Source: Tabrizicola sp. (GTDB lineage: Bacteria > Pseudomonadota > Alphaproteobacteria > Rhodobacterales > Rhodobacteraceae). Taken from it: a DNA stretch of 64,000 bases. Shown here in pieces: positions 6,400-17,926 of the stretch (its first letter is position 1; every line of letters begins with the position of its first letter). The notes under the pieces are model-generated. The model had not been told where the DNA came from. It saw only the letters and a program-made list of their open reading frames with translations, and did no database searches. The translations under genes were made by a program, and so were the position numbers. Location: assembly GCA_025458105.1 (NCBI GenBank), contig JALOTD010000007.1, positions 21,712-85,711 on the forward strand, written 5' to 3'.

Positions 6400-6451
6400 T
6401 TTCTATATCCTTAGTTTTATAGTTTCTTTTGGCCGAGAAAAGGCCGGGCGT

Positions 6452-6772
6452 TCAGCCGGTGGCCTCCTCCGGGGTCAGGGCGGGCAGGCCTGCGCAGCAT
6501 TCCGCGACAAGGAAGCTGGAAAGGCGACGGATGGCGGTGAATTCGGCGTGGTTCACCACCTCGCGGCCGATCTTTTCTTGCGAGACAAGACCGGCGTCGA
6601 CGAGGGTGCCCAGATGATGGGCAAGGGTCGAGGGCGCAATGCCAAGATGCGCGCCGATCTGACCGACGTTCAGACCACCGTCCCCGGCCTTGATCAGAAG
6701 GCGGAAGATCGACAGCCGGGCATCATGGCCAAGGGCTGCAAGGGCGCGGGCTTCTGGGGTCATCGTGGTCAT
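6452..6772 (-). CDS. ArsR/SmtB-family metalloregulator
   Basis: LAALGHDARLSIFRLLIKAGDGGLNVGQIGAHLGIAPSTLAHHLGTLVDAGLV is a winged HTH. A C-terminal ECCAG cysteine pair is present. Confidence 0.85.
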   Translation of the reverse strand: MTTMTPEARALAALGHDARLSIFRLLIKAGDGGLNVGQIGAHLGIAPSTLAHHLGTLVDAGLVSQEKIGREVVNHAEFTAIRRLSSFLVAECCAGLPALTPEEATG

Positions 6773-6820
6773 AGGGTCTATATAACTACGAATCTAGTTT
6801 TGTAAAGCGAATACGAAGAC

Positions 6821-6848
6821 GCCGCTGGCCAGGGCTGTGGCCAGCGGC
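6821..6848. terminator. GC-rich hairpin downstream of dapA
   Basis: GCCGCTGGCCA-GGGCTG-TGGCCAGCGGC, a perfect 11-bp stem. There is no clear U-tract. Confidence 0.4.
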
Positions 6849-6884
6849 GACAATTCCAGGGTCGCACTGCGCGACCAAAGGGCC

Positions 6885-7757
6885 TCAGATCAGCCCGGCG
6901 TGCTTCATGGCGGCCTTGATCTTGGCCTTGGTCCCGTCGGTCAGGCCGACCAGCGGCAGGCGGACTTCCTCGGAGCAGAGGCCGAGAAGCGAGAGGCCGT
7001 ACTTGGCACCGACGAGACCCGGTTCGATGAAGATCGCCTCATGCAGGGGCATCAGACGGTCCTGGTATTCCAACGCCTTGGCGTAGTCGCCGCGGAGCGT
7101 CGCCTCCTGGAACTCGGCGCAGAGGCGCGGGGCGACGTTCGCGGTGACCGAGATGCAGCCGACCCCGCCATGGGCGTTGAAGCCCAGCGCGGTCGCGTCT
7201 TCACCCGAAAGCTGGATGAAGTCGGCACCGCAAGAGGCGCGCTGCATCGAGACGCGCTCGATCTTGCCCGTCGCGTCCTTGACCCCGATGATCCGGGGCA
7301 GCTTGGCCAGCGTTCCCATCGTCTCGGGCGACATGTCGATCACCGACCGGCCGGGGATGTTGTAGATCACGATCGGCAGCTGGCAGCAGTCGTGCAGCGC
7401 GGTGTAATGCGCGATCAGGCCAGCCTGCGTGGGCTTGTTATAGTAGGGCGTCACGACCAGCGCCGCCGTGGCCCCCACCTTTTCGGCATGACGCATCAGG
7501 CTGATGCCTTCGACGGTGTTGTTGGACCCCGCCCCGGCGATGACAGGTACGCGGCCCGCAACGATGGCGACGACTTCTTCGATCACCCGCTGGTGCTCGG
7601 CATGGCTGAGCGTCGGGCTTTCCCCGGTCGTGCCAACCGGAACGATCCCGTGCGAGCCTTCGGCAATGTGCCAGTCCACAAGTTTCTTCAGCGTCACCAG
7701 ATCCAGCTCGCCGTTCTTGAACGGCGTCACCAGGGCAGGAAGGGACCCTCTGATCAT
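6885..7757 (-). CDS. dapA: 4-hydroxy-tetrahydrodipicolinate synthase
   Basis: [53 protein letters not shown]. Start taken at MIRGS. Confidence 0.92.
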
Positions 7758-7853
7758 GACGCTTCTCGCTGTTGGGCGGTGCAAAGCCAAGTCTTTGCCC
7801 ACTGACGGAACTGTGGGTTGTGGAGGAGAGTCCGGTCAGGCAGATTCAGTCCC

Positions 7854-9788
7854 ATGACAGGCAAGAGACATATTGGCGTAGCGCTGCTTGCGCTGGCGCT
7901 CTTGAGTGCTTCGGCACAGGCGGATACTGCGCAGGCGATGCGCACCGCGTTGGAACTGACGTCGGGCAAGGATTGGGACGGCGCGCTTGCGGTCGCACCG
8001 GCAGGTGTGGGGCGCGACGTTGTGGAATGGCAGCGGCTGCGGGCGGGCGAGGGGCGGCTGGGGGAGTACGAGGACTTCCTGAAGCGCCGTCCTGATTGGC
8101 CGGGACTGCAGCTTTTGCGCGAGAAGGGCGAAGAAGCAGTGGCGCGGTCGGATGATCCGGCGCGGGTGATCGCCTGGTTCGCGGGCGGGCTGCCGGAAAC
8201 GGGCGAAGGGGCCGTGGCCTATGTGCGCGCGTTGCAGATGGCGGGCCGGATGGCCGAAGCCGAGACCGAGGCGATGCGCGCCTGGGCCGAGCTGTCCTTC
8301 ACGCCCGAAGAAGAAGAAGCGCTGATTGCGCTGGCCCCAGAGGCCGTGGGCTTTGTCCATGAACTGCGGCTTGAGACACTTTTGTGGGGAGGCAAGACGC
8401 GTGAGGCAAGCCGGATGCTGGCCCGCGTGCCCGAGGACGTTCGGGCCGTCGGGCGGGCGCGGATTGCGCTGCAGAACGAGGAAAAGGGCGTGACAGCCCT
8501 GATCGATGCCGTGCCGAAGTCGGAGGCGGGCGATGCTGGTCTGGCCTTTGACCGGTTCATCTGGCGGATGAAGCGCGACCTTTATGACGACGCGCTGCCG
8601 CTGATCCTGGAACGCTCGGCCAGTGCCGAGACGCTGGGCCGCCCCGAAGCCTGGGCCGAGCGCCGCGCAATCCTGACGCGCTGGCTGATGCGGCAGGGCC
8701 GCCCGGCCGAGGCGTATCGTGTGGCTTCCTCCCATTGGTTGCCCGAAGGCGCCGGGGCCTCGTCCTATGCCGATCTGGAATTCCTGGCGGGCTTCATCGC
8801 CTTGCGGCGGTTGGACGACCCTGCGACAGCGCTGAAGCATTTCCAGCACCTGAAGGCGGGTGTGAAGACCCCGATCAGCCTGGCCCGCGCCGATTACTGG
8901 ATCGGTCGCGCCGAGGAGGCAGCGGGGAAGGATGCCACGGCCAGCTACAGGTCGGCGGCGGTGCATCAGACGGCCTATTACGGGCTTCTGGCGGCCGAAC
9001 GGCTGGGCCTCAGTCTTGACGCGGGTCTTTTGTCCGACAGCCGCGCGCCAGACTGGCGAGAGGCGGGCTTTCGGCAGTCTTCGGTGATGCAGGCGGCAGA
9101 GCTCCTGCGCACGGCGGGCGACTTGAACCTGTCGAAGCGGTTCCTGTTGCATCTGGCAGAAAGCCAGGACGCGACCGGACTGGCGCAGATGGCGGACATG
9201 GTCACCGCCTGGGGGGACCCGCATCTGGCCGTGCTGATCGGCAAGGCCGCGGCTGAACGCGGGCTGATCCTGCCACATGTCTACTATCCGGTGCCGGACT
9301 TCGTTCCGGACGGGTTGTCCGTCAGCCGGGCGCTGGCGCTGGCCATTGCACGGCGGGAAAGCGAGTTCGATCCGCTGGCACGCTCGACCGCCGATGCGCG
9401 CGGGTTGATGCAGGTGCTGCCAGGCACGGCAAAGCTGGTGGCAGGCAAGCTTGGGCTTGAGCACATGGACGCCAAGCTGACCAGCGACCCGGCCTATAAC
9501 GTGACGATTGGCGCGGCCTATCTGGCCGAGATGATCGAGGAATTCGGCCCCTCGATCGCGCTGATCGCGTCGGGCTATAACGCTGGCCCCGGCCGCCCGC
9601 GCCGCTGGATTGGCGAATTCGGTGACCCAAGGCAGGCGGATGTGGATGTGGTGGACTGGGTGGAGTCGATCCCCTTCAGCGAGACGCGGACCTATGTGAT
9701 GCGGGTTGCCGAGGGTGTGGTGATCTACCGCGCCAAGCTGAAAGGTGCAGTTGGTCCGGTGCGCATCAGCGATGAGTTGAAAGGCTAG
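7854..9788 (+). CDS. slt: soluble lytic murein transglycosylase (Slt70-like)
   Basis: Signal peptide MTGKRHIGVALLALALLSASAQA, a long helical superhelix region, and the C-terminal catalytic motif RRESEFDPLARSTADARGLMQVLPGTA..YNAGPG. Confidence 0.85.
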   Translation: MTGKRHIGVALLALALLSASAQADTAQAMRTALELTSGKDWDGALAVAPAGVGRDVVEWQRLRAGEGRLGEYEDFLKRRPDWPGLQLLREKGEEAVARSDDPARVIAWFAGGLPETGEGAVAYVRALQMAGRMAEAETEAMRAWAELSFTPEEEEALIALAPEAVGFVHELRLETLLWGGKTREASRMLARVPEDVRAVGRARIALQNEEKGVTALIDAVPKSEAGDAGLAFDRFIWRMKRDLYDDALPLILERSASAETLGRPEAWAERRAILTRWLMRQGRPAEAYRVASSHWLPEGAGASSYADLEFLAGFIALRRLDDPATALKHFQHLKAGVKTPISLARADYWIGRAEEAAGKDATASYRSAAVHQTAYYGLLAAERLGLSLDAGLLSDSRAPDWREAGFRQSSVMQAAELLRTAGDLNLSKRFLLHLAESQDATGLAQMADMVTAWGDPHLAVLIGKAAAERGLILPHVYYPVPDFVPDGLSVSRALALAIARRESEFDPLARSTADARGLMQVLPGTAKLVAGKLGLEHMDAKLTSDPAYNVTIGAAYLAEMIEEFGPSIALIASGYNAGPGRPRRWIGEFGDPRQADVDVVDWVESIPFSETRTYVMRVAEGVVIYRAKLKGAVGPVRISDELKG

Positions 9789-9896
9789 ATCCAGGTCCTT
9801 GCCCGAGACCCGCAAAGGCTTGTGGCAAGGGTGACAAATGCCGTCACCCGAATTGCAGGACTTGCGGGGTGGGGCGGCGCGGCTATCCTGCCCGGC

Positions 9897-11858
9897 ATGA
9901 TCGCGCGCGTGCTTGGCCTTTCCCTGACCATGCTTGCGGCCGCCCCGGCCATGGCCGAAGTGCGGGCCGTCGTGGTCGGCGTTTCGGACTACCAGGTGCT
10001 GGACGTCGATCTGCAAGGCCCAGTGCATGACGCGCGGCTGATGGCAGAAGTTCTGGTGGCGCGGGGTGTTGCACCAGAGGCGATCACCGTTCTGTCGACC
10101 GATCCGACTGGTCTGCCGGCGGGCGTGGCCAGCGGCCCGGCCGACCGAGCCTCGATCCTTGCGGCGCTGCAGGCGGCCTCTGCGGCCTCCGGGCAAGGAG
10201 ACACGCTGATCTTCTATTTCTCGGGCCACGGCGCGCAGGCCCCGGACCTCTCTGGCGACGAGGGCGGAGGGTACGACGAAATCCTTCTGCCCGCCGATGC
10301 AGCGGGCTGGAAGGGCGCGACCCAGGCGGTCGAGAATGCAATCCTGGACGACGAGTTGCTGACCTGGGCGCAGGCCGCGCTAGACCGGGGGGTCAAGGTC
10401 GTGGGACTGATCGATGCCTGCCATTCCGCAACCGGCTTTCGTGCAGTCGGCGGGACGGGCGTCGCCCGGGTCGTGGATGAAGCGGTTCTGAATATCCCAT
10501 CAGACGTGGTGCCGGTCCTGGGCGAACCGGGGCCGTCTCTGAGCGGCGAGTTCGTCTTTCTCTATTCCTCGCAATCCGATCAGCGGTCGTTCGAATATCC
10601 CCTGGCCGATGGCAGCGCCTGGCATGGCGAGTTCACCCTGCGACTGGCACAGACCTTGCGGGATGTGCCGGATGCCAGTTGGGCCCAGGTCCTGGCCGCG
10701 ACACGCGAGGCGATGGTGCAGGGACCGGCGCGGCAAATGCCCGAGGGCGAAGGGCCGTTGCTGGACGCAGCGGTCTTTGGCGAAGGTCGCGGGGCTGCGC
10801 GCTGGCCAATTGTCGGGGGCCGGCTGGAAGCTGGGCTTCTGGACGGGTTGGCGGAAGGCGCGGAAGTCGCCCTCTACGCGGCTGCCGCAGGGGGCGAAGC
10901 GATGGCCGTGCTGCCGCTTGGCACGGTCGATGCGCGTTCAGCGACACTGCGGGGCGATCTGCCGGAGGGTGCCGTTTGGGCAGAACTGGTCAGCGCGCCG
11001 CCGCCTGCAACCCTGACCCTGGCCGCACCAGTGCGGTCCGATGCGGCGGATGGGTTCGACTATTCCCCCTGGCTTGCCGCCCTGCCCGCGCCGGGGGCCA
11101 AGCCCGACCTCGTTCCGATCCTGACCCAAGGCGTCGTGGCGCTGGCGGGGGCAGACGGAGTATTGGACCCGGCAGGGCCAATGTCATCACCGCGTATCCT
11201 GCCTCTGCCCGAAGAGACTCCCGAAGATGCAGTGGCGCGGGTGTTGGACCAGGCCGCGCACGGCCTGCGCCTGCGGGCAGTTCTGGCTGGAGCCTCGGGG
11301 CGCAGCCTGACAGGTGCAAAGGCCATCGACATGGCCATCGACCGGCGCGCGGCAGAGGGCGCGTGTGACCGCGTGGCCGAACCCTTGCCTCATGACCCGG
11401 CAAAAGGCGTCGCCCCGTGCGATCAGTTGTGGCTGACACTGACAAACATTGGCGGTAAGGCCCAGGACATCAGTGTGCTGTATTTCGCGGCGGATTTCTC
11501 GGTCGCGCCGATTTGGCCGGTCCAGAACCTGGCGAACCGGCTGGCCCCGGGCGAAAGCGTCCGGGTCGGCTTGCAGATCAAGGCCGACAGCATTGCCGGG
11601 CTGGAGGAGATCTGGGTTCTGGCAGTGCCGGTCGACCCCGATGCCCCGCGCGTGGACCTGACCCGTCTTGCCACACCCGAAATGACCCGCGCCTTTGCAG
11701 GCACATCTTCGGACATGGCGCTATGGCTGGAAGGCCGCATGGACCCCGACAGCCGCAGTCGTGGCTTTACCCTGAAACCTGCCCCGCTGACGCTGATCCG
11801 TCAGCCGGTGCGCCTTACACCTGGGGCAACCACCCCCGGCTTTTCCCTGGAGCATTGA
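9897..11858 (+). CDS. exported caspase-fold (peptidase C14) protease with long C-terminal extension
   Basis: Signal peptide MIARVLGLSLTMLAAAPAMA. The caspase His/Cys dyad context is LIFYFSGHGAQ and GLIDACHSATGF. The C-terminal region resembles DUF4384 (from memory). Confidence 0.8.
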   Translation: MIARVLGLSLTMLAAAPAMAEVRAVVVGVSDYQVLDVDLQGPVHDARLMAEVLVARGVAPEAITVLSTDPTGLPAGVASGPADRASILAALQAASAASGQGDTLIFYFSGHGAQAPDLSGDEGGGYDEILLPADAAGWKGATQAVENAILDDELLTWAQAALDRGVKVVGLIDACHSATGFRAVGGTGVARVVDEAVLNIPSDVVPVLGEPGPSLSGEFVFLYSSQSDQRSFEYPLADGSAWHGEFTLRLAQTLRDVPDASWAQVLAATREAMVQGPARQMPEGEGPLLDAAVFGEGRGAARWPIVGGRLEAGLLDGLAEGAEVALYAAAAGGEAMAVLPLGTVDARSATLRGDLPEGAVWAELVSAPPPATLTLAAPVRSDAADGFDYSPWLAALPAPGAKPDLVPILTQGVVALAGADGVLDPAGPMSSPRILPLPEETPEDAVARVLDQAAHGLRLRAVLAGASGRSLTGAKAIDMAIDRRAAEGACDRVAEPLPHDPAKGVAPCDQLWLTLTNIGGKAQDISVLYFAADFSVAPIWPVQNLANRLAPGESVRVGLQIKADSIAGLEEIWVLAVPVDPDAPRVDLTRLATPEMTRAFAGTSSDMALWLEGRMDPDSRSRGFTLKPAPLTLIRQPVRLTPGATTPGFSLEH

Positions 11859-11859
11859 T

Positions 11860-12924
11860 ATGAAGAGACACGTCCTGCCTGCCTTGTCCCTTGGCCTGTT
11901 CTGCGCCGCCATACCAGCCCTTGCAGAGGACGCCGCCGGGATTGCACCCAAGGCGGATCCCGCAGCATCCTCGCCGTTCGGCTATGCCAAATCCGGGGCG
12001 AAGGCGGCTCGGTCCTCGACTGCCGAGGCCGAGGCCGCAGGGGCAAAGGTGATCGGCGGAGACGTGGCCGCACCCGGGGCCTGGCCTTGGCAGGTGGCAC
12101 TTCTGGTCTCTGGCGCGCCGGTCAGCCCGGACAGCCAGTTCTGTGGCGGGTCCATGGTGCTGGACCGCTGGGTCCTGACGGCGGCGCATTGCGTGGTGAT
12201 GGAGGACGAGACGGGCGGGTTCTTCGACCTGTGGCCGCAGGATGTGGCAATCCTTGTCGGGGCGAACAATCTGCGGCCTGGCGAGGGCGACCTGATCCCG
12301 GTCGAAGCCATTTTCAAGTATCCCAGCTACACCCGCGACCAGTTCGACAATGACATCGCCCTGATCAAGCTGGCGCGCGCCCCGCAAGCGCCTTACCAGA
12401 CCATCGAGGTTCCGGATGCCGAATATGGCGATCTGTTGAACCAGCAGGGCGTGACGACCATCGTGACCGGCTGGGGCCTGCAGGAAGGCGCGCGGCGCTC
12501 GGTTGAGTTGCGGCAAGCGCAGATCCAGATGCTGGATCGCAACCTTTGCAACAGCGCGCTGATGGAGGTCCGGGCCGAAGATGCGGCGGGCGGGTTCACC
12601 TATGCCGCGCAAGCCCTGGGCGTGGCCGAGGAAGACGCGTTTGCCGTGTGGGACCAGCTGGTGGCCCGTGCGCCAGAACCGCTGAGCGAGAACATGATCT
12701 GCTCGGGCACGTTCGAAGGCGGCAAGACCAGCTGCAATGGCGATTCCGGCGGCCCCCTGGTCGTGCCGCTGGACGATGGTCGGTATATCCAGGCCGGTGT
12801 GGTCAGCTGGGGCCTGTCCGGCATGCAGGGCCAGGGATGCGAGGAAACGGCGCTGTTCTCGATCTACACCGATGTATCGAACTTCGTCCCCTGGCTGAAC
12901 CAGGTGATCGAGGCGAACCCCTGA
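11860..12924 (+). CDS. exported chymotrypsin-fold (S1) serine protease zymogen
   Basis: Signal peptide, then a roughly 40-aa propeptide, then K|VIGGDVAAPGAWPWQ. The triad is TAAHC, NDIALIKL and CNGDSGGP. The ATG is 1 nt after the caspase gene stop. Confidence 0.9.
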   Translation: MKRHVLPALSLGLFCAAIPALAEDAAGIAPKADPAASSPFGYAKSGAKAARSSTAEAEAAGAKVIGGDVAAPGAWPWQVALLVSGAPVSPDSQFCGGSMVLDRWVLTAAHCVVMEDETGGFFDLWPQDVAILVGANNLRPGEGDLIPVEAIFKYPSYTRDQFDNDIALIKLARAPQAPYQTIEVPDAEYGDLLNQQGVTTIVTGWGLQEGARRSVELRQAQIQMLDRNLCNSALMEVRAEDAAGGFTYAAQALGVAEEDAFAVWDQLVARAPEPLSENMICSGTFEGGKTSCNGDSGGPLVVPLDDGRYIQAGVVSWGLSGMQGQGCEETALFSIYTDVSNFVPWLNQVIEANP

Positions 12925-12990
12925 GCCGGGGAACCGGCGCCCAAAGGTTCGGGGTGTGTCTTCCGGACCCTCTGATTGACGGCAAAAGAC

Positions 12991-13019
12991 AAGGCCCGCA
13001 GGGTATGCCTGCGGGCCTT
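12991..13019. terminator. bidirectional hairpin between convergent genes
   Basis: AAGGCCCGCAGG-GTATG-CCTGCGGGCCTT, a perfect 12-bp stem. It is flanked by A-rich sequence upstream and T-rich sequence downstream. Confidence 0.7.
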
Positions 13020-13038
13020 CTGCAACTTTTGGCCGGGC

Positions 13039-13860
13039 CTAGTTCGTCAGCAGGTAATAGCTGTTGCGCACGCCACCCACGTTCTCGACCGTGACGTAGA
13101 AATAGCCGTCCCAGGCCGGGGTGAAGTCGCAATACAAGCTGTCCGACCAGCTGACGTCATAGCAGAAGACGTTGCCATTCTCGTCGGTCACGACCACATC
13201 AAGGTTCGCGTCGCCGTCGCCGACCACGGCAATCTCGGCGTAGGAGTTGCCATAGAACGGGATCTCCCAGACATCGGTCTGACCTGCGGGCAAGCGCGAG
13301 ATCCACTGCACGGCGCCGCCGATCCGCCCGCGCCCGGTTTCTGCCATTGCGTCGTCGATCACGCCCAGAAGCGCCTCGTCATCTGCGGCAAGTTCCTTGG
13401 CCTTGGCGAACATCGCATCTGCTGTGACCGGAGCATCGGCTGCACCTTCCTCGTCGGAGGTCGCACTGAAGAAGCTGGCCTTGGCAGCCGTGCGCGGGGT
13501 GCCGTCATTCATCATCGGCGCAGGAGCGGCCGGGGCAGCCGCAGCAGCCTTCTTACGGAACGTTGTCGCCTCGCCTTCACCAAATGACACCTTCGCTGGG
13601 TCAAGCGCGGCCGGCTCGGCGCTGGCAATATCGACCGAGGCAGCCATCTTCGCCGCCGCAAGGACGGTCACGGCATCGTCCTGGGCCACACCAAGCGCAT
13701 AAAGTTCTTGTGCAAGGCCCATGGTCGAGGCCCCGCCAGGCGCAGCACCTTCAGGTGTAGGGCCGACGTTCTGGCCCGACTTGTCCTGCGCCAGGGCAGG
13801 CAGGGTCAATGCGACCAGCGCGGTCGTGGCAAGCACACGGGAAACGGATTTCAGCGTCAT
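13039..13860 (-). CDS. secreted hypothetical protein with PPC-like C-terminal domain (paralog 1)
   Basis: Start at MTLKSVSRVLATTALVALTLPALAQ (signal peptide). The C-terminus is DVWEIPFYGNSYAEIAVVGDGDANLDVVVTDENGNVFC..YCDFTPAWDGYFYVTVENVGG..YYLLTN. Confidence 0.7.
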   Translation of the reverse strand: MTLKSVSRVLATTALVALTLPALAQDKSGQNVGPTPEGAAPGGASTMGLAQELYALGVAQDDAVTVLAAAKMAASVDIASAEPAALDPAKVSFGEGEATTFRKKAAAAAPAAPAPMMNDGTPRTAAKASFFSATSDEEGAADAPVTADAMFAKAKELAADDEALLGVIDDAMAETGRGRIGGAVQWISRLPAGQTDVWEIPFYGNSYAEIAVVGDGDANLDVVVTDENGNVFCYDVSWSDSLYCDFTPAWDGYFYVTVENVGGVRNSYYLLTN

Positions 13861-13971
13861 CTTCGGAATCCTATTCTTTGGCCGCCCCGGAATAGGGCGG
13901 TATAGCGATATCTTTGCAGGCCAGCTGCGGTTTGAGAAGTCAGGTTGGCATGACAAATTCCGTCACCGGCA

Positions 13972-14640
13972 TCAGTTCCCGACCAGCCGGTAGCCCGCAT
14001 CGCGGGAACCGGTGTTCCGGACCGTCACGATGAAAAAGCCGTTGCGCGCCGGGGTGACGCGGCACAGCACCGGCTCTGCCGAAGCCGGGCGCGAGCAGAC
14101 CGGTTCTCCTGTCTCGTCCTGGATCGTCAGCTGCAGAGGATCGGCCCCTGCCCCGATCAGGCCGATCTCGGCCGTGACTTCCCCGAAGAGCGGCACCCGC
14201 CAGTCGTCTGCCTGCCCAGCGCCAAGTTGTCCCCGAACCTCGATTGCGGCTTTCGACGGACCGCCGGGAAGCTGGGCGTCAAGGTCCCAGATCAGGTCCT
14301 GCAGGTCGGGATCATCGCCGGCCAGGTTGCGCGCAATCGTCAGGGCGGTCTCGCTTGCCGGATCGGGGGTCTTTGACGCGGCTGAGGCATCCGGCGGGGC
14401 GACCTCTCCCATCCGTTGCCAGCCGGGCGCGGGGTACAGCGTCACGGCCCGGGCCAGACGAATCGCGGCCACGATCAGCACCACATCGCCCGAAGCCAGT
14501 CCTTGGGCATAGGTCCGTTGCGCCAGAACAAGCTGCGATGCGCTGCCCATAGCACCCTTGGCCATGGCCGAGAGGTTCGGGCCTTCGGCTTGCGCTGGAA
14601 GTGCCATGAGAAGGATCGACAGAGAAAGGCCACGCCACAT
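13972..14640 (-). CDS. secreted hypothetical protein with PPC-like C-terminal domain (paralog 2)
   Basis: Signal peptide MWRGLSLSILLMALPAQA. It aligns by eye to paralog 1 over both the N-terminal helical segment and the C-terminal domain (DDWRVPLFGEVTAEIGLIGAG..LQLTIQDETGEPVC..LCRVTPARNGFFIVTVRNTG..YRLVGN). Confidence 0.7.
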   Translation of the reverse strand: MWRGLSLSILLMALPAQAEGPNLSAMAKGAMGSASQLVLAQRTYAQGLASGDVVLIVAAIRLARAVTLYPAPGWQRMGEVAPPDASAASKTPDPASETALTIARNLAGDDPDLQDLIWDLDAQLPGGPSKAAIEVRGQLGAGQADDWRVPLFGEVTAEIGLIGAGADPLQLTIQDETGEPVCSRPASAEPVLCRVTPARNGFFIVTVRNTGSRDAGYRLVGN

Positions 14641-15949: not shown

Positions 15950-16933
15950 CTAGATCAGGCCTTCCTTGCGGAAAAGCTCTTTCAGATCGGCCTCGGGCCG
16001 TGCACCGAAATGAGTGATGACTTCGGTTGCGGCAATGCAGCCCATCCGGCCAGCAGTGGCCAGCGACTGGCCGGTGGCATAGCCGTAAAGGAACCCGGCA
16101 GCAAAAAGGTCACCCGCACCCGTGGCGTCGACCGGCACGACCCGGCGCACCGGAGCCAGGGCGGTTTCCTCACCGCGCACGATGATCACATCCTCACCTG
16201 ACCGCGTGCAGACCACCAGACCGGCATCCGCCGCAGCCTGTTCCAGAGCGGCGGACAGGTCGGTCTGATACAGCGAGCACCATTCGTGCTCGTTGCCGAT
16301 CACATAGTCCAGCGACTTGACCAGACGGCGGAAGTCGGCGCGGTGGCGGTCGACGCAGAACGGGTCGGACAGCGAAATGCCCGCCTTTCCGCCTGCCTTG
16401 TGGCAAAGCTCCACCGCGCGCTCAAAGGCCTGTTTGCCCTTCGGCTTGTCGTAAAGATAGCCTTCCAGGAACAGGATCTCGGCGCGGCCCGCCACGCTTT
16501 CCGATACGTCTTCAGGCCCGAGTTCCGAGGAAATCCCGAGATAGGTGTTCATCGACCGCTCGCCATCCGGGCTGACGAAAATCATCGAGCGCGAGGTTGG
16601 CAGCTCTCCACCCGGCACTGGCGGGTTGACGAATTCGGTCCCCTCATCGGCCATGCTGCGGGCATAGAACCGGCCAAGCGCGTCATCATGCACCCGCCCG
16701 ATGAAGGCGGTGGCCAGGCCAAGGCTGCCCAGACCGGCCAGCGTGTTCGCCACCGACCCGCCGGGCGCCTGCTGGCGGTTCGTCATTGCGCCGTACAGGA
16801 GTTCACCCCGCTCCCGCTCTACCAGCTGCATGATGCCTTTCTGGATGCCCATCAGGTCGAGAAAGCTGTCGTCAGCGGTGGAGAACACATCGACGATGGC
16901 ATTGCCGATGCCGACGACCTGGTAGGACTTCAT
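15950..16933 (-). CDS. adenosine kinase (PfkB family)
   Basis: MKSYQVVGIGNAIVDVF.., GGSVANT, and the C-terminal DATGAGDLFAAGFLYG. The ATG at 16933 overlaps the original nth stop (ATGA). Confidence 0.85.
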   Translation of the reverse strand: MKSYQVVGIGNAIVDVFSTADDSFLDLMGIQKGIMQLVERERGELLYGAMTNRQQAPGGSVANTLAGLGSLGLATAFIGRVHDDALGRFYARSMADEGTEFVNPPVPGGELPTSRSMIFVSPDGERSMNTYLGISSELGPEDVSESVAGRAEILFLEGYLYDKPKGKQAFERAVELCHKAGGKAGISLSDPFCVDRHRADFRRLVKSLDYVIGNEHEWCSLYQTDLSAALEQAAADAGLVVCTRSGEDVIIVRGEETALAPVRRVVPVDATGAGDLFAAGFLYGYATGQSLATAGRMGCIAATEVITHFGARPEADLKELFRKEGLI

Positions 16934-17497
16934 GCGGTCTTCTCCGGGTAAAGGCACCAGTCCCGGATCGGGCAGATGCCGCATTTGGGTTTGCGCGCGA
17001 CGCAGATATACCGGCCATGCAGGATTGCCTGGGCAGATGCCGGTCCGGTTGCCGACGCGGAAGATGTGGGTGTCGACGGCCTGGGCCGGGTGGTGGAACC
17101 ACATCGAAAGGACCACGTTCGCAGTCTTCCTTCCCACGCCGGGGAGTGTCACGAGAGCGGCGCGGGAGCTTGGGACCTCGCCCCCGAAATTCTCGATCAG
17201 CAGGCGGGACAGCTTGATGACGTTCTTCGCCTTGTTGCGGAACAGGCCGATGGTCTTGATATGCTCGATCAGGCCCTCTTCGCCCAAGGCCAGCATCTTC
17301 TCCGGCGTGTCGGCGATCTGGAACAGCTTTCGCGTCGCCTTGTTCACGCCCACGTCGGTCGCCTGCGCCGACAGCGCCACGGCGACCAGAAGGGTGAAGG
17401 CGTTCACATGCTCTAGTTCGCCCTTGGGTTCAGGCTCGATCTCGGCAAAGCGCGCAAAGATCTGTTTCAGTATGGCATAGGGAAGTTGCGGGGTCAT
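16930..17497 (-). pseudogene. nth: endonuclease III (nth) with internal deletion and frameshift
   Basis: The N-terminal 146 aa are typical Nth (LLVAVALSAQATD, LPGVGRKTANVVL, VDTHIFRVGNRTG). The [4Fe-4S] tail [31 protein letters not shown]-stop is present but in another frame. About 25-28 conserved residues between them are missing. Confidence 0.7.
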
Positions 17498-17545: not shown

Positions 17546-17926
17546 TCAGGGCGGCGGCAAGTCCGGATCCTGTTCGCAACGCGCCAACGGAATCTCGATC
17601 AGGCTCTTGATCGACAGAACGTTGTCATACTGACCACCGTTTACGTCGAACTCGCCTTCTGCGCAGGCGCAACTGTAGCCGTACCGCTGAGTCGGCTGTC
17701 CGGCATAGTCAATGCGAAGACGGTCGTCAAAGGCCTGGGTATAGGCGTCCTCGAACCCCGGCACAGGGGGACCGCCTTGCATGGAAATCCACCACTGGCC
17801 ATCGGCATCCTCAAGGATGACATTGGCGGGTGTGGGGTTGTGATACCAGCCGCAGCGGGTTTCGGTCTTGGCGGCAGCCGGCACGGCAGCGACCAAACTT
17901 ACGGCGACAAGCGTAAAGCGAAGCAT
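17546..17926 (-). CDS. DUF4087-like small secreted protein
   Basis: Only the last 126 aa of the 427-aa track ORF look real: signal peptide MLRFTLVAVSLVAAVPAAA, then CGWYHNPTPANVILEDADGQWWIS. Confidence 0.65.
   Translation of the reverse strand: MLRFTLVAVSLVAAVPAAAKTETRCGWYHNPTPANVILEDADGQWWISMQGGPPVPGFEDAYTQAFDDRLRIDYAGQPTQRYGYSCACAEGEFDVNGGQYDNVLSIKSLIEIPLARCEQDPDLPPP

Follow-up and report, generated by a model that had tools for sequence, protein, structure and literature searches.

A candidate cell-envelope protease system in freshwater Tabrizicola, comprising an exported caspase-fold protease, an S1 protease zymogen and a family of exported partner proteins

Caspase homologs are numerous in bacteria, and functional work on them has dealt almost entirely with cytoplasmic defence (gasdermin activation, Craspase, CHAT effectors); the exported homologs have so far been noticed merely as a curiosity of domain architecture. 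Exported bacterial metacaspases, and metacaspase operons with other proteases, were noted generically in 2012, when many bacterial metacaspases were remarked to start with a hydrophobic segment, interpreted as a signal peptide, and 23 metacaspase operons with other proteolysis domains have been counted (PMC3501461). The pairing of a caspase-fold with a trypsin-fold enzyme is familiar from the caspase/CHAT-trypsin conflict systems, including gasdermin-associated ones (Kaur, Burroughs and Aravind 2020/2021). Here we describe a locus that resembles both, found in a 64,000-nucleotide stretch of the genome of Tabrizicola sp. (contig JALOTD010000007.1, positions 21,712 to 85,711; hereafter the window), in which the gene for a C14 caspase-fold protease directly precedes that for an S1 protease, and two paralogous genes, parC and parD, lie beside them on the opposite strand (Table 1; parC, parD and, in relatives, par3 are names coined in the present analysis). 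The enzymes are members of known families, and what is new is the conserved family of exported partners, together with the location in the envelope. Taken together, the par family and the proteases look like a widespread yet unstudied cell-envelope protease system.

Our preferred reading, to which we assign a probability of about 0.4, is that the locus encodes an envelope protease cascade operating outside the cytoplasm, with the par proteins as its dedicated inhibitors or latency partners, and that the window contains a reduced copy of the module. The evidence comes from the two enzymes and their predicted export, from the gene neighbourhoods of relatives, both close and distant, and from the predicted structure and persistence of the par proteins.

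A previous reading of the same DNA, made from the sequence alone (the sequence-only reading), had taken the first gene to encode a C14 caspase-fold protease with a His-Cys dyad, and this identification was borne out. The Pfam Peptidase_C14 model matched residues 23-283 (E=3.3e-19, 69.9 bits against a cut-off of 21.4), metacaspase-1 in the PDB matched at 5e-12, with yeast, plant and trypanosome metacaspases as the closest solved relatives, and the catalytic residues His111 (in FSGHG; 10227-10229) and Cys175 (in IDACHS; 10419-10421) were at least 98% conserved in 42 orthologs from species-level genomes, as were S109, G110, G112, D173 and D45. Two of these, Asp45 (GPVHD) and Asp173 (D-A-C), occupy what we take to be the acidic S1-pocket positions that give metacaspases their Arg/Lys specificity. 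The protein resembles the metacaspases and orthocaspases in its caspase fold, its dyad and the Asp residues at the putative pocket positions for a basic P1 residue, and the locus differs from them in adding a tightly coupled S1 zymogen, exported par partners and a C-terminal region of about 370 residues (approximately 300-653). No Pfam match at E<=1 was found in this region or in those of four homologs, so that the DUF4384 domain that had been suggested for it is not supported; searches of the PDB by sequence, and with a profile built from nine diverse C-terminal regions, were likewise negative. Prokaryotic caspase homologs are reported to cut after basic residues (PMC6426788).

The second gene, whose ATG lies one nucleotide past the C14 stop codon, was equally confirmed to encode an S1 protease. 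The Pfam Trypsin model matched at E=4.4e-47 (161 bits), and the triad His110/Asp165/Ser296 (TAAHC, NDIAL, GDSGGP) was conserved in 40 orthologs. A signal peptide (residues 1-22, ALA↓ED) is followed by a propeptide (23-63) that ends at the activation site GAK63↓V64-IGG, for which the consensus among these orthologs was G-[AS]-K↓VIGG, with Lys at P1 in 39 of the 40 and Arg in the other; the residue equivalent to Asp194 was invariant. These features show the protein to be a zymogen, predicted to need a cut after Lys63 to free its VIGG N terminus. The residue at chymotrypsin position 189 is Thr290 (kept in 38 of the 40 orthologs) and not Asp, and judged by this position the pocket of the S1 protease itself is not trypsin-like. 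When compared by eye with canonical trypsins, the protein also has an apparent insertion of about 50 residues, NSALMEVRAEDAAGGFTYAAQALGVAEEDAFAVWDQLVARAPEPLSE, before MICSG (residues 211-260 approximately; window 12490-12640), which is partly conserved among the orthologs and whose ends, placed without a reference alignment, are rough.

The junction of the two genes reads CAT TGA T ATG, with GGAG a few bases upstream, and from this arrangement C14 and S1 are almost certainly co-transcribed and translationally coupled. We propose that the metacaspase-type C14 protease would cut the S1 zymogen after Lys63, so that the two would form a cascade of two steps, located either on the cell surface or in the periplasm. 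C14 is the proposed activator because Asp45 and Asp173 stand at the presumed Arg/Lys pocket positions and the pocket of S1 is not trypsin-like, and because the two enzymes are almost certainly co-translated here and a C14 domain is fused to an S1 domain in one protein of a distant locus (L084, described below).

The signal peptides of all four window proteins were judged by manual criteria. Each protein starts with a charged n-region of a few residues, which leads into a hydrophobic core and an A-x-A site (AMA↓EV after residue 20 of C14, ALA↓E in S1, ALA↓QD in ParC and AQA↓EG in ParD), and the hydrophobic cores gave ten-residue Kyte-Doolittle means of 2.1-2.6, compared with 1.3-1.5 in the products of the cytoplasmic neighbours dapA and argE, which lack such a build. 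Among blastp matches with at least 80% coverage, the hydrophobic N terminus was kept in 35 of 43 for C14, 36 of 40 for S1, 112 of 123 for ParC and 121 of 129 for ParD, the last two sets largely overlapping, as each query matched the other paralog. By these criteria, all four proteins carry Sec-type signal peptides and are predicted to be exported.

Predicted export bears directly on whether the locus could belong among the cytoplasmic caspase/trypsin modules known from anti-phage defence (gasdermin, EACC1-caspase, or the CHAT effectors of CBASS/CRISPR). PADLOC, run on the window, returned one generic caspase match and nothing beyond it, and the NCBIfam model caspase_w_EACC1 (NF047832) matched weakly, both of which might point to such a module. 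However, the EACC1 match reached 33.4 bits, far under the cut-off of 140, and was rejected; every component of the system has a signal peptide or a lipobox; and gasdermin, STAND, CBASS and CRISPR genes had no match among the genes scanned with Pfam within about 7 kb on either side, in agreement with the sequence-only reading, which had found no cytoplasmic defence partners nearby. We consider this explanation very improbable. The conflict systems have been described as cytoplasmic and tied to NTPases, effector-associated domains (EADs) or gasdermin, whereas the par and caspase-fold proteins considered here are exported or lipoproteins, and neither an NTPase nor a gasdermin was found in the window.

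In order to describe the gene neighbourhoods, we used 79 related loci from a scan at one genome per species, searched by tblastn with the window proteins and by profile hidden Markov models (HMMs) for par domains. C14 and S1 were always found together, and parD adjoined parC in most of the Tabrizicola-like loci (L001-L055). The four genes thus do not behave as one unit: the members of each pair travel together, but the C14-S1 pair adjoined parC-parD in only about half of the 79 loci. Where the pairs are adjacent, the usual arrangement is a larger cluster, defined from Pfam matches in a Shimia-like locus (L069), tblastn over all loci and four caspase-centred look-ups, all four of which had par genes in the cluster. 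Its canonical order, with arrows giving direction, is second C14 ← par3, then DegP/HtrA → OmpR-type regulator → HAMP histidine kinase → patatin → first C14 → S1, then parC ← parD, and then an M20 gene; the patatin carries a lipobox. The par3 stop codon and the start codon of the second C14 gene overlap by one base in L166-L168, implying translational coupling. Neither tblastn nor the par HMM found DegP, the regulator, the kinase, the patatin or a third par gene in the 64-kb window, and its C14-S1 pair sits after dapA-slt, as in L016, L026, L031 and L037; judged by gene content and order, the window locus is a reduced, rearranged derivative of the larger cluster. Our literature search, incomplete in its coverage, turned up no account of a DegP/two-component/patatin/C14/S1 cluster, of an exported partner family resembling the PPC (pre-peptidase C-terminal) domain, of a metacaspase tightly coupled to an S1 zymogen, or of the C-terminal region of C14.

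The composition of this cluster also bears on whether C14 and S1 are ordinary secreted degradative proteases, serving in feeding or matrix turnover, with the par proteins as a mere periplasmic safeguard or uninvolved. We regard this as rather improbable. Although the Sec signal peptides, the housekeeping neighbours with no defence genes nearby, and a patchy presence and loss typical of accessory exoenzymes would all suit such enzymes, the relatives carry a one-strand block with DegP, a sensor kinase, a regulator and a patatin lipoprotein, and the neighbours of distant par genes (TPR-CHAT, TIR-TPR, kinases, an ECF sigma factor, CHASE2, WD40) are typical of regulated conflict systems. Furthermore, the neighbouring genes include no secretion system that crosses the outer membrane.

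The protease block can be dispensed with, to judge from genomes that keep parC and parD after its loss or decay. In the isolate Rhodobacter sp. YIM 73028 (L037, 10865-13636), C14 is broken over three frames and S1 over two, and in L038 (10856-16005) the block of DegP, response regulator, histidine kinase, patatin, C14, S1 and par3 survives as fragments; parC, parD and argE are intact in both. ParC and ParD retain 68-83% identity where the protease genes beside them are missing or reduced to pseudogenes.

We also looked up distant par relatives, at about 30-36% identity, and found several of them among caspase-fold and S1 genes. In L082, par is convergent with the gene for an exported C14 protein of 747 residues. 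In L083, par, trypsin, C14 and TPR-CHAT genes follow one another on one strand, with CHASE2 and OmpA-CHAT proteins encoded nearby. In L084, genes for a kinase-C14 protein, an ECF sigma factor, a kinase and a C14 protein precede a gene for an exported C14-trypsin fusion of 1138 residues (6442-9858, plus strand; Peptidase_C14 at 36-315 and Trypsin_2 at 744-949), which lies directly upstream of par. The distant C14 and par proteins bear signal peptides or lipoboxes.

A metagenome scan added 80 further loci, of which 43 were non-identical, had at least 4 kb of flank and were used, with neighbours detected by HMMs built for C14, CHAT and S1. A caspase-fold (C14/CHAT) gene lay within 5 kb of par in 28 of the 43 loci, an S1-fold gene in 15, and one or both in 33, mostly on the same strand. 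The C14 and S1 HMMs without the CHAT HMM gave only 18 of 43, because CHAT proteins were missed; TPR-CHAT, CHAT, trypsin and TIR-TPR neighbours were confirmed by Pfam in the loci that had been missed in this way. Several CHAT proteins of the metagenomic loci have signal peptides, and in L105, L126, L138 and L142 par adjoins trypsin and exported or lipoprotein C14/CHAT genes. Caspase-fold gene density was 11.1 per 100 kb within 5 kb of par and 8.6 at 5-10 kb, a modest excess; this control is weak because the loci are multi-gene islands, whose 5-10 kb flanks are rich in caspases too. Our background comparison for the 33 of 43 loci rests instead on published genome-wide frequencies: one survey gives mean metacaspase abundances of 0.01-0.66 per 1000 proteins for the well-sampled bacterial groups in its list and up to 1.11 for Nitrospirae, with single genomes at about 4 (PMC3501461). 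The distant par loci share their TPR-CHAT, TIR, kinase, ECF sigma factor and WD40 neighbours with the conflict systems (PMC8195603). That the small proteins are functionally tied to proteases, as the sequence-only reading had supposed, gains strong support from this occurrence of par beside caspase-fold and S1 proteases across distant lineages.

One cassette recurred on a single strand in low-GC bacteria (L105, 9893-16926; also L124 and L094). It consists of par, a gene for a protein of about 484 residues that had no Pfam match, and genes for a trypsin (about 456 residues), a kinase-like protein (about 400 residues) and a TPR-CHAT protein with a signal peptide (about 800 residues), in that order.

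These distributions also allow the adjacency itself to be evaluated. It could be coincidental if parC and parD encode core periplasmic proteins tied to argE, beside which a protease pair happened to land: nearly every Tabrizicola-like locus has the order parD-parC-argE, whether or not the proteases are there, the linkage to argE extends even to the 32%-identical relative L080, and in L016 and L026 the parC-parD-argE block is inverted relative to dapA-slt-C14-S1 (giving the order slt, C14, S1, argE, parD, parC). Set against this are the frequency of caspase-fold or S1 genes within 5 kb of metagenomic par genes, when compared with a published background of at most about 0.7 metacaspases per 1000 proteins, the loci of Shimia, Pseudogemmobacter, Paracoccus and Mesobacterium, in which par stands beside C14-S1 without argE, and the one-base overlap of par3 with the second C14 gene. 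We consider coincidence quite improbable.

ParC and ParD are 30% identical (E=3e-26), and parD was found by the HMM of the par-family C-terminal domain at 2e-39. An AlphaFold2 model of ParC from a 130-sequence alignment had a mean pLDDT of 85.6 and a pTM of 0.80; an earlier run on six sequences gave a pLDDT of 51 and was not trusted. In the model, the signal peptide is followed by a predicted four-helix bundle made up of two helical hairpins (43-74 and 147-174), between which runs a variable loop (85-140) of low confidence, in ParD much shorter, and the C-terminal part (182-272) is modelled as an eight-stranded beta-sandwich of PPC/GOLD-like fold. Foldseek against the PDB found no match to full-length ParC; the sandwich alone matched a GOLD domain (7rrm), the Tk-SP jelly roll (3afg), the collagen-binding domains (CBDs) of the collagenases ColH/ColG (3jqw, 1nqd) and a PPC domain (5sv5). 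Matches to small domains had target-normalised TM scores of 0.62-0.81 at 1.8-2.8 A rmsd, among them 5sv5 (0.68, 2.5 A) and 3jqw (0.66).

The sequence-only reading had described the two proteins as paralogs with a helical N-terminal part and a PPC-like C-terminal domain. The paralogy, the helical part and, by AlphaFold2 and Foldseek, a PPC-like fold all stood, but a Pfam PPC match was lacking: PF04151 did not match ParC or ParD at E<=1, and among relatives it matched 7 of 41, atypical long ones included, and 4 of 11 typical ones only marginally (best E=0.016). Moreover, each of the two proteins has a gene and a signal peptide of its own, and neither is the C-terminal part of a secreted peptidase precursor. 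We therefore did not assign them to Pfam PPC, despite the fold. The ParC C-terminal domain superposes on the PPC, CBD, subtilase jelly-roll and GOLD domains and shares the acidic GDGDxDLDL...DENGN motif typical of PPC-like domains; the par proteins differ in that they stand alone, with the sandwich fused to a four-helix bundle, rather than forming an appendage of a peptidase.

An exhaustive profile search placed 1827 clusters (at 50% identity) in the par family at E<=1e-3 and 866 at E<=1e-10, with most listed members being 200-250 residues long and matching over the C-terminal domain; the full build of signal peptide, bundle and sandwich was confirmed in 24 to 130 aligned members. The most conserved features are the acidic GDGDxDLDL...DENGNxIC segment, Cys233 and Cys244, and a C-terminal Y-x-L-x-T-N, and many members have a conserved R-G where the helical part meets the sandwich. 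Cluster-member names yielded almost no taxonomy; the named members come from Tabrizicola and other Rhodobacterales, Alistipes and other Bacteroidales, and Cyclobacterium, and every one of them bears the annotation 'hypothetical protein'. No Pfam or NCBIfam family matched ParC or ParD. The label 'FeoA' given by JGI to some ParC homologs had no Pfam support and was not used, and a PDB search with a profile of the par alignment, which two atypical long members distorted, returned just designed helical repeats and weak filamin matches. On these searches, par is a large uncharacterised family with no curated model that matches ParC or ParD. Some loci have additional tandem copies: three par C-domains lie in a row in L045 (8409-10813), and in L037 a weaker third copy lies between parD and argE (8732-9184). 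In a Micropepsaceae genome and another alphaproteobacterial metagenome-assembled genome (L078 and L079, 8382-10615), a 28%-identical par gene directly follows a patatin-like gene, and neither C14 nor S1 was detected within 10 kb of it.

Two kinds of partner were considered. Under one, the par proteins would be substrates or pro-effectors cut in the loop or linker, or else adaptors, anchors or foldases that position the proteases on the envelope or lend them stability there. ParC matched PPC, CBD and Tk-SP C-domains, which serve to bind substrates or stabilise proteases, and P-domains and PPC domains act in this manner within subtilases and collagenases; the exposed 55-residue loop of ParC, although modelled with low confidence, is moderately conserved among orthologs, as is the linker, with no clear reactive-site motif; many family members have the R-G at the junction of helices and sandwich; and par, trypsin, C14 and CHAT genes occur in same-strand operons. 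However, neither the long loop nor the R-G motif is present in ParD, and intact parC and parD genes are seen after the proteases have gone or decayed, a condition in which one would expect a substrate, an anchor or a chaperone to decay too. We hold this explanation to be unlikely.

Under the preferred reading, ParC and ParD would be dedicated partners of caspase-fold proteases, most likely acting as stoichiometric inhibitor, latency or self-protection factors. They would keep the proteases from acting within the envelope of the producing cell, and loss or degradation of a par protein would release protease activity. Several observations led us to this proposal: export would place the par proteins in the same compartment as the proteases, par is often the first gene of its operon or is coupled to C14, several paralogs are present where several hydrolases occur, and the persistence of intact par genes after protease decay is what a protective factor would show. 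The signal peptides or lipoboxes and the conserved Cys pair fit periplasmic proteins.

Several points weigh against this interpretation. The par family resembles no known protease-inhibitor family, its Foldseek matches being generic beta-sandwiches; members of I38 (AprI/Inh), staphostatin and ecotin were absent both from the PDB sequence matches and from the top 50 Foldseek matches. About half of the related genomes have parC/parD beside argE with no protease within 10 kb, which could mean that they have a function of their own, and in L080 the par gene (32% identical) adjoins only an M20 peptidase gene. In the window, the protease operon and the parC-parD pair face each other, so that the two are transcribed separately. 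Finally, the signal-peptide calls were made by hand, and the presumed Arg/Lys specificity of C14 is taken from the motif positions of metacaspases.

Small beta-rich inhibitors that are encoded beside a protease and protect the producer include AprI/Inh (acting on serralysins), the staphostatins and ecotin, of which AprI/Inh and ecotin are exported. By analogy, the window module would work most like the AprA-AprI pair with its co-encoded inhibitor, and it also recalls separase-securin, in which a removable partner restrains a clan-CD protease. The persistence of par without a protease resembles that of ecotin or of orphan immunity genes, although no similarity to inhibitors in sequence or fold was detected. 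We know of no inhibitor family for bacterial clan-CD proteases. A further comparison is with the CpxP-CpxRA-DegP circuits, as in relatives par3, a gene for a small periplasmic helical protein, is divergent from the degP-response regulator-histidine kinase operon; however, par3 has no homology to CpxP, and the window has neither the two-component system nor DegP. The DegP/HtrA, the OmpR/HAMP two-component system and the patatin phospholipase lipoprotein suggest that, in relatives, the system may be controlled by envelope stress and have a lytic or antagonistic output. In a wider and more doubtful interpretation, the par proteins might form a phylum-spanning family that regulates caspase-fold proteases from outside the cytoplasm, as inhibitors or 'securin-like' latency factors, marking envelope caspase/CHAT-trypsin(-phospholipase) modules that run a regulated lytic or antagonistic programme in response to envelope damage, phage or competitors. 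It is a similarly speculative suggestion within that interpretation that the Rhodobacterales modules sit behind a DegP-linked envelope-stress sensor, and that such modules in general would be an extracellular counterpart of the cytoplasmic caspase death systems.

The open reading frame check of the window found all four genes in place (Table 1). A T-run on the minus strand accompanies the hairpin between the two convergent gene pairs, which by its sequence is likely to be the terminator of parC and possibly acts both ways. GC content over the region was 0.63-0.68, the same as in the remaining window; GC content at third codon positions was 0.74-0.75 for C14, parC and parD, slightly under the 0.79-0.85 of neighbouring housekeeping genes, and 0.81 for S1.

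Table 1. Coordinates and features of the protease-par locus in the Tabrizicola window
Feature	Position	Strand	Description	Match or detail
C14 gene	9897-11858	+	exported metacaspase-like protease, 653 aa	Pfam PF00656
S1 gene	11860-12924	+	exported chymotrypsin-fold protease zymogen, 354 aa	Pfam PF00089
G+C-rich hairpin	12991-13019		between convergent S1 and parC genes	12 pairs, 9 G-C
parC	13039-13860	-	exported protein, 273 aa	matches no Pfam/NCBIfam family
parD	13972-14640	-	exported parC paralog, 222 aa	shorter inter-helix loop

The flanks, about 7 kb on each side, encode by Pfam an EamA transporter, a proline racemase, an ArsP permease, an SLT transglycosylase, M20/ArgE, a PfkB kinase, an Ada-like methyltransferase, OmpA, GntR and an oxidoreductase; the assignment of dapA comes from reading its translation, and some open reading frames were read by eye only, such as an ArsR-like one (6452-6772) and a small protein near 17546. 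One flanking open reading frame of 515 residues (15950-17497, minus strand) joins in frame an endonuclease-III-like HhH-GPD segment (38-158), which lacks the usual C-terminal part, to the PfkB kinase (237-501). In L037 the HhH-GPD and PfkB parts are separate matches, and the joined frame could stem from a frameshift, from an artefact of the assembly or from truncation of an nth gene.

The conserved pairing of a C14 protease with an S1 zymogen yields a specific predicted cleavage site, Lys63↓Val64, and the par family tracks exported caspase-fold proteases in the Alphaproteobacteria and Bacteroidota, including gut Alistipes. Should the par proteins turn out to inhibit their cognate proteases or keep them latent, bacterial clan-CD proteases would, as far as we know, have their first dedicated regulators, and par would be a useful genomic marker for such protease systems.

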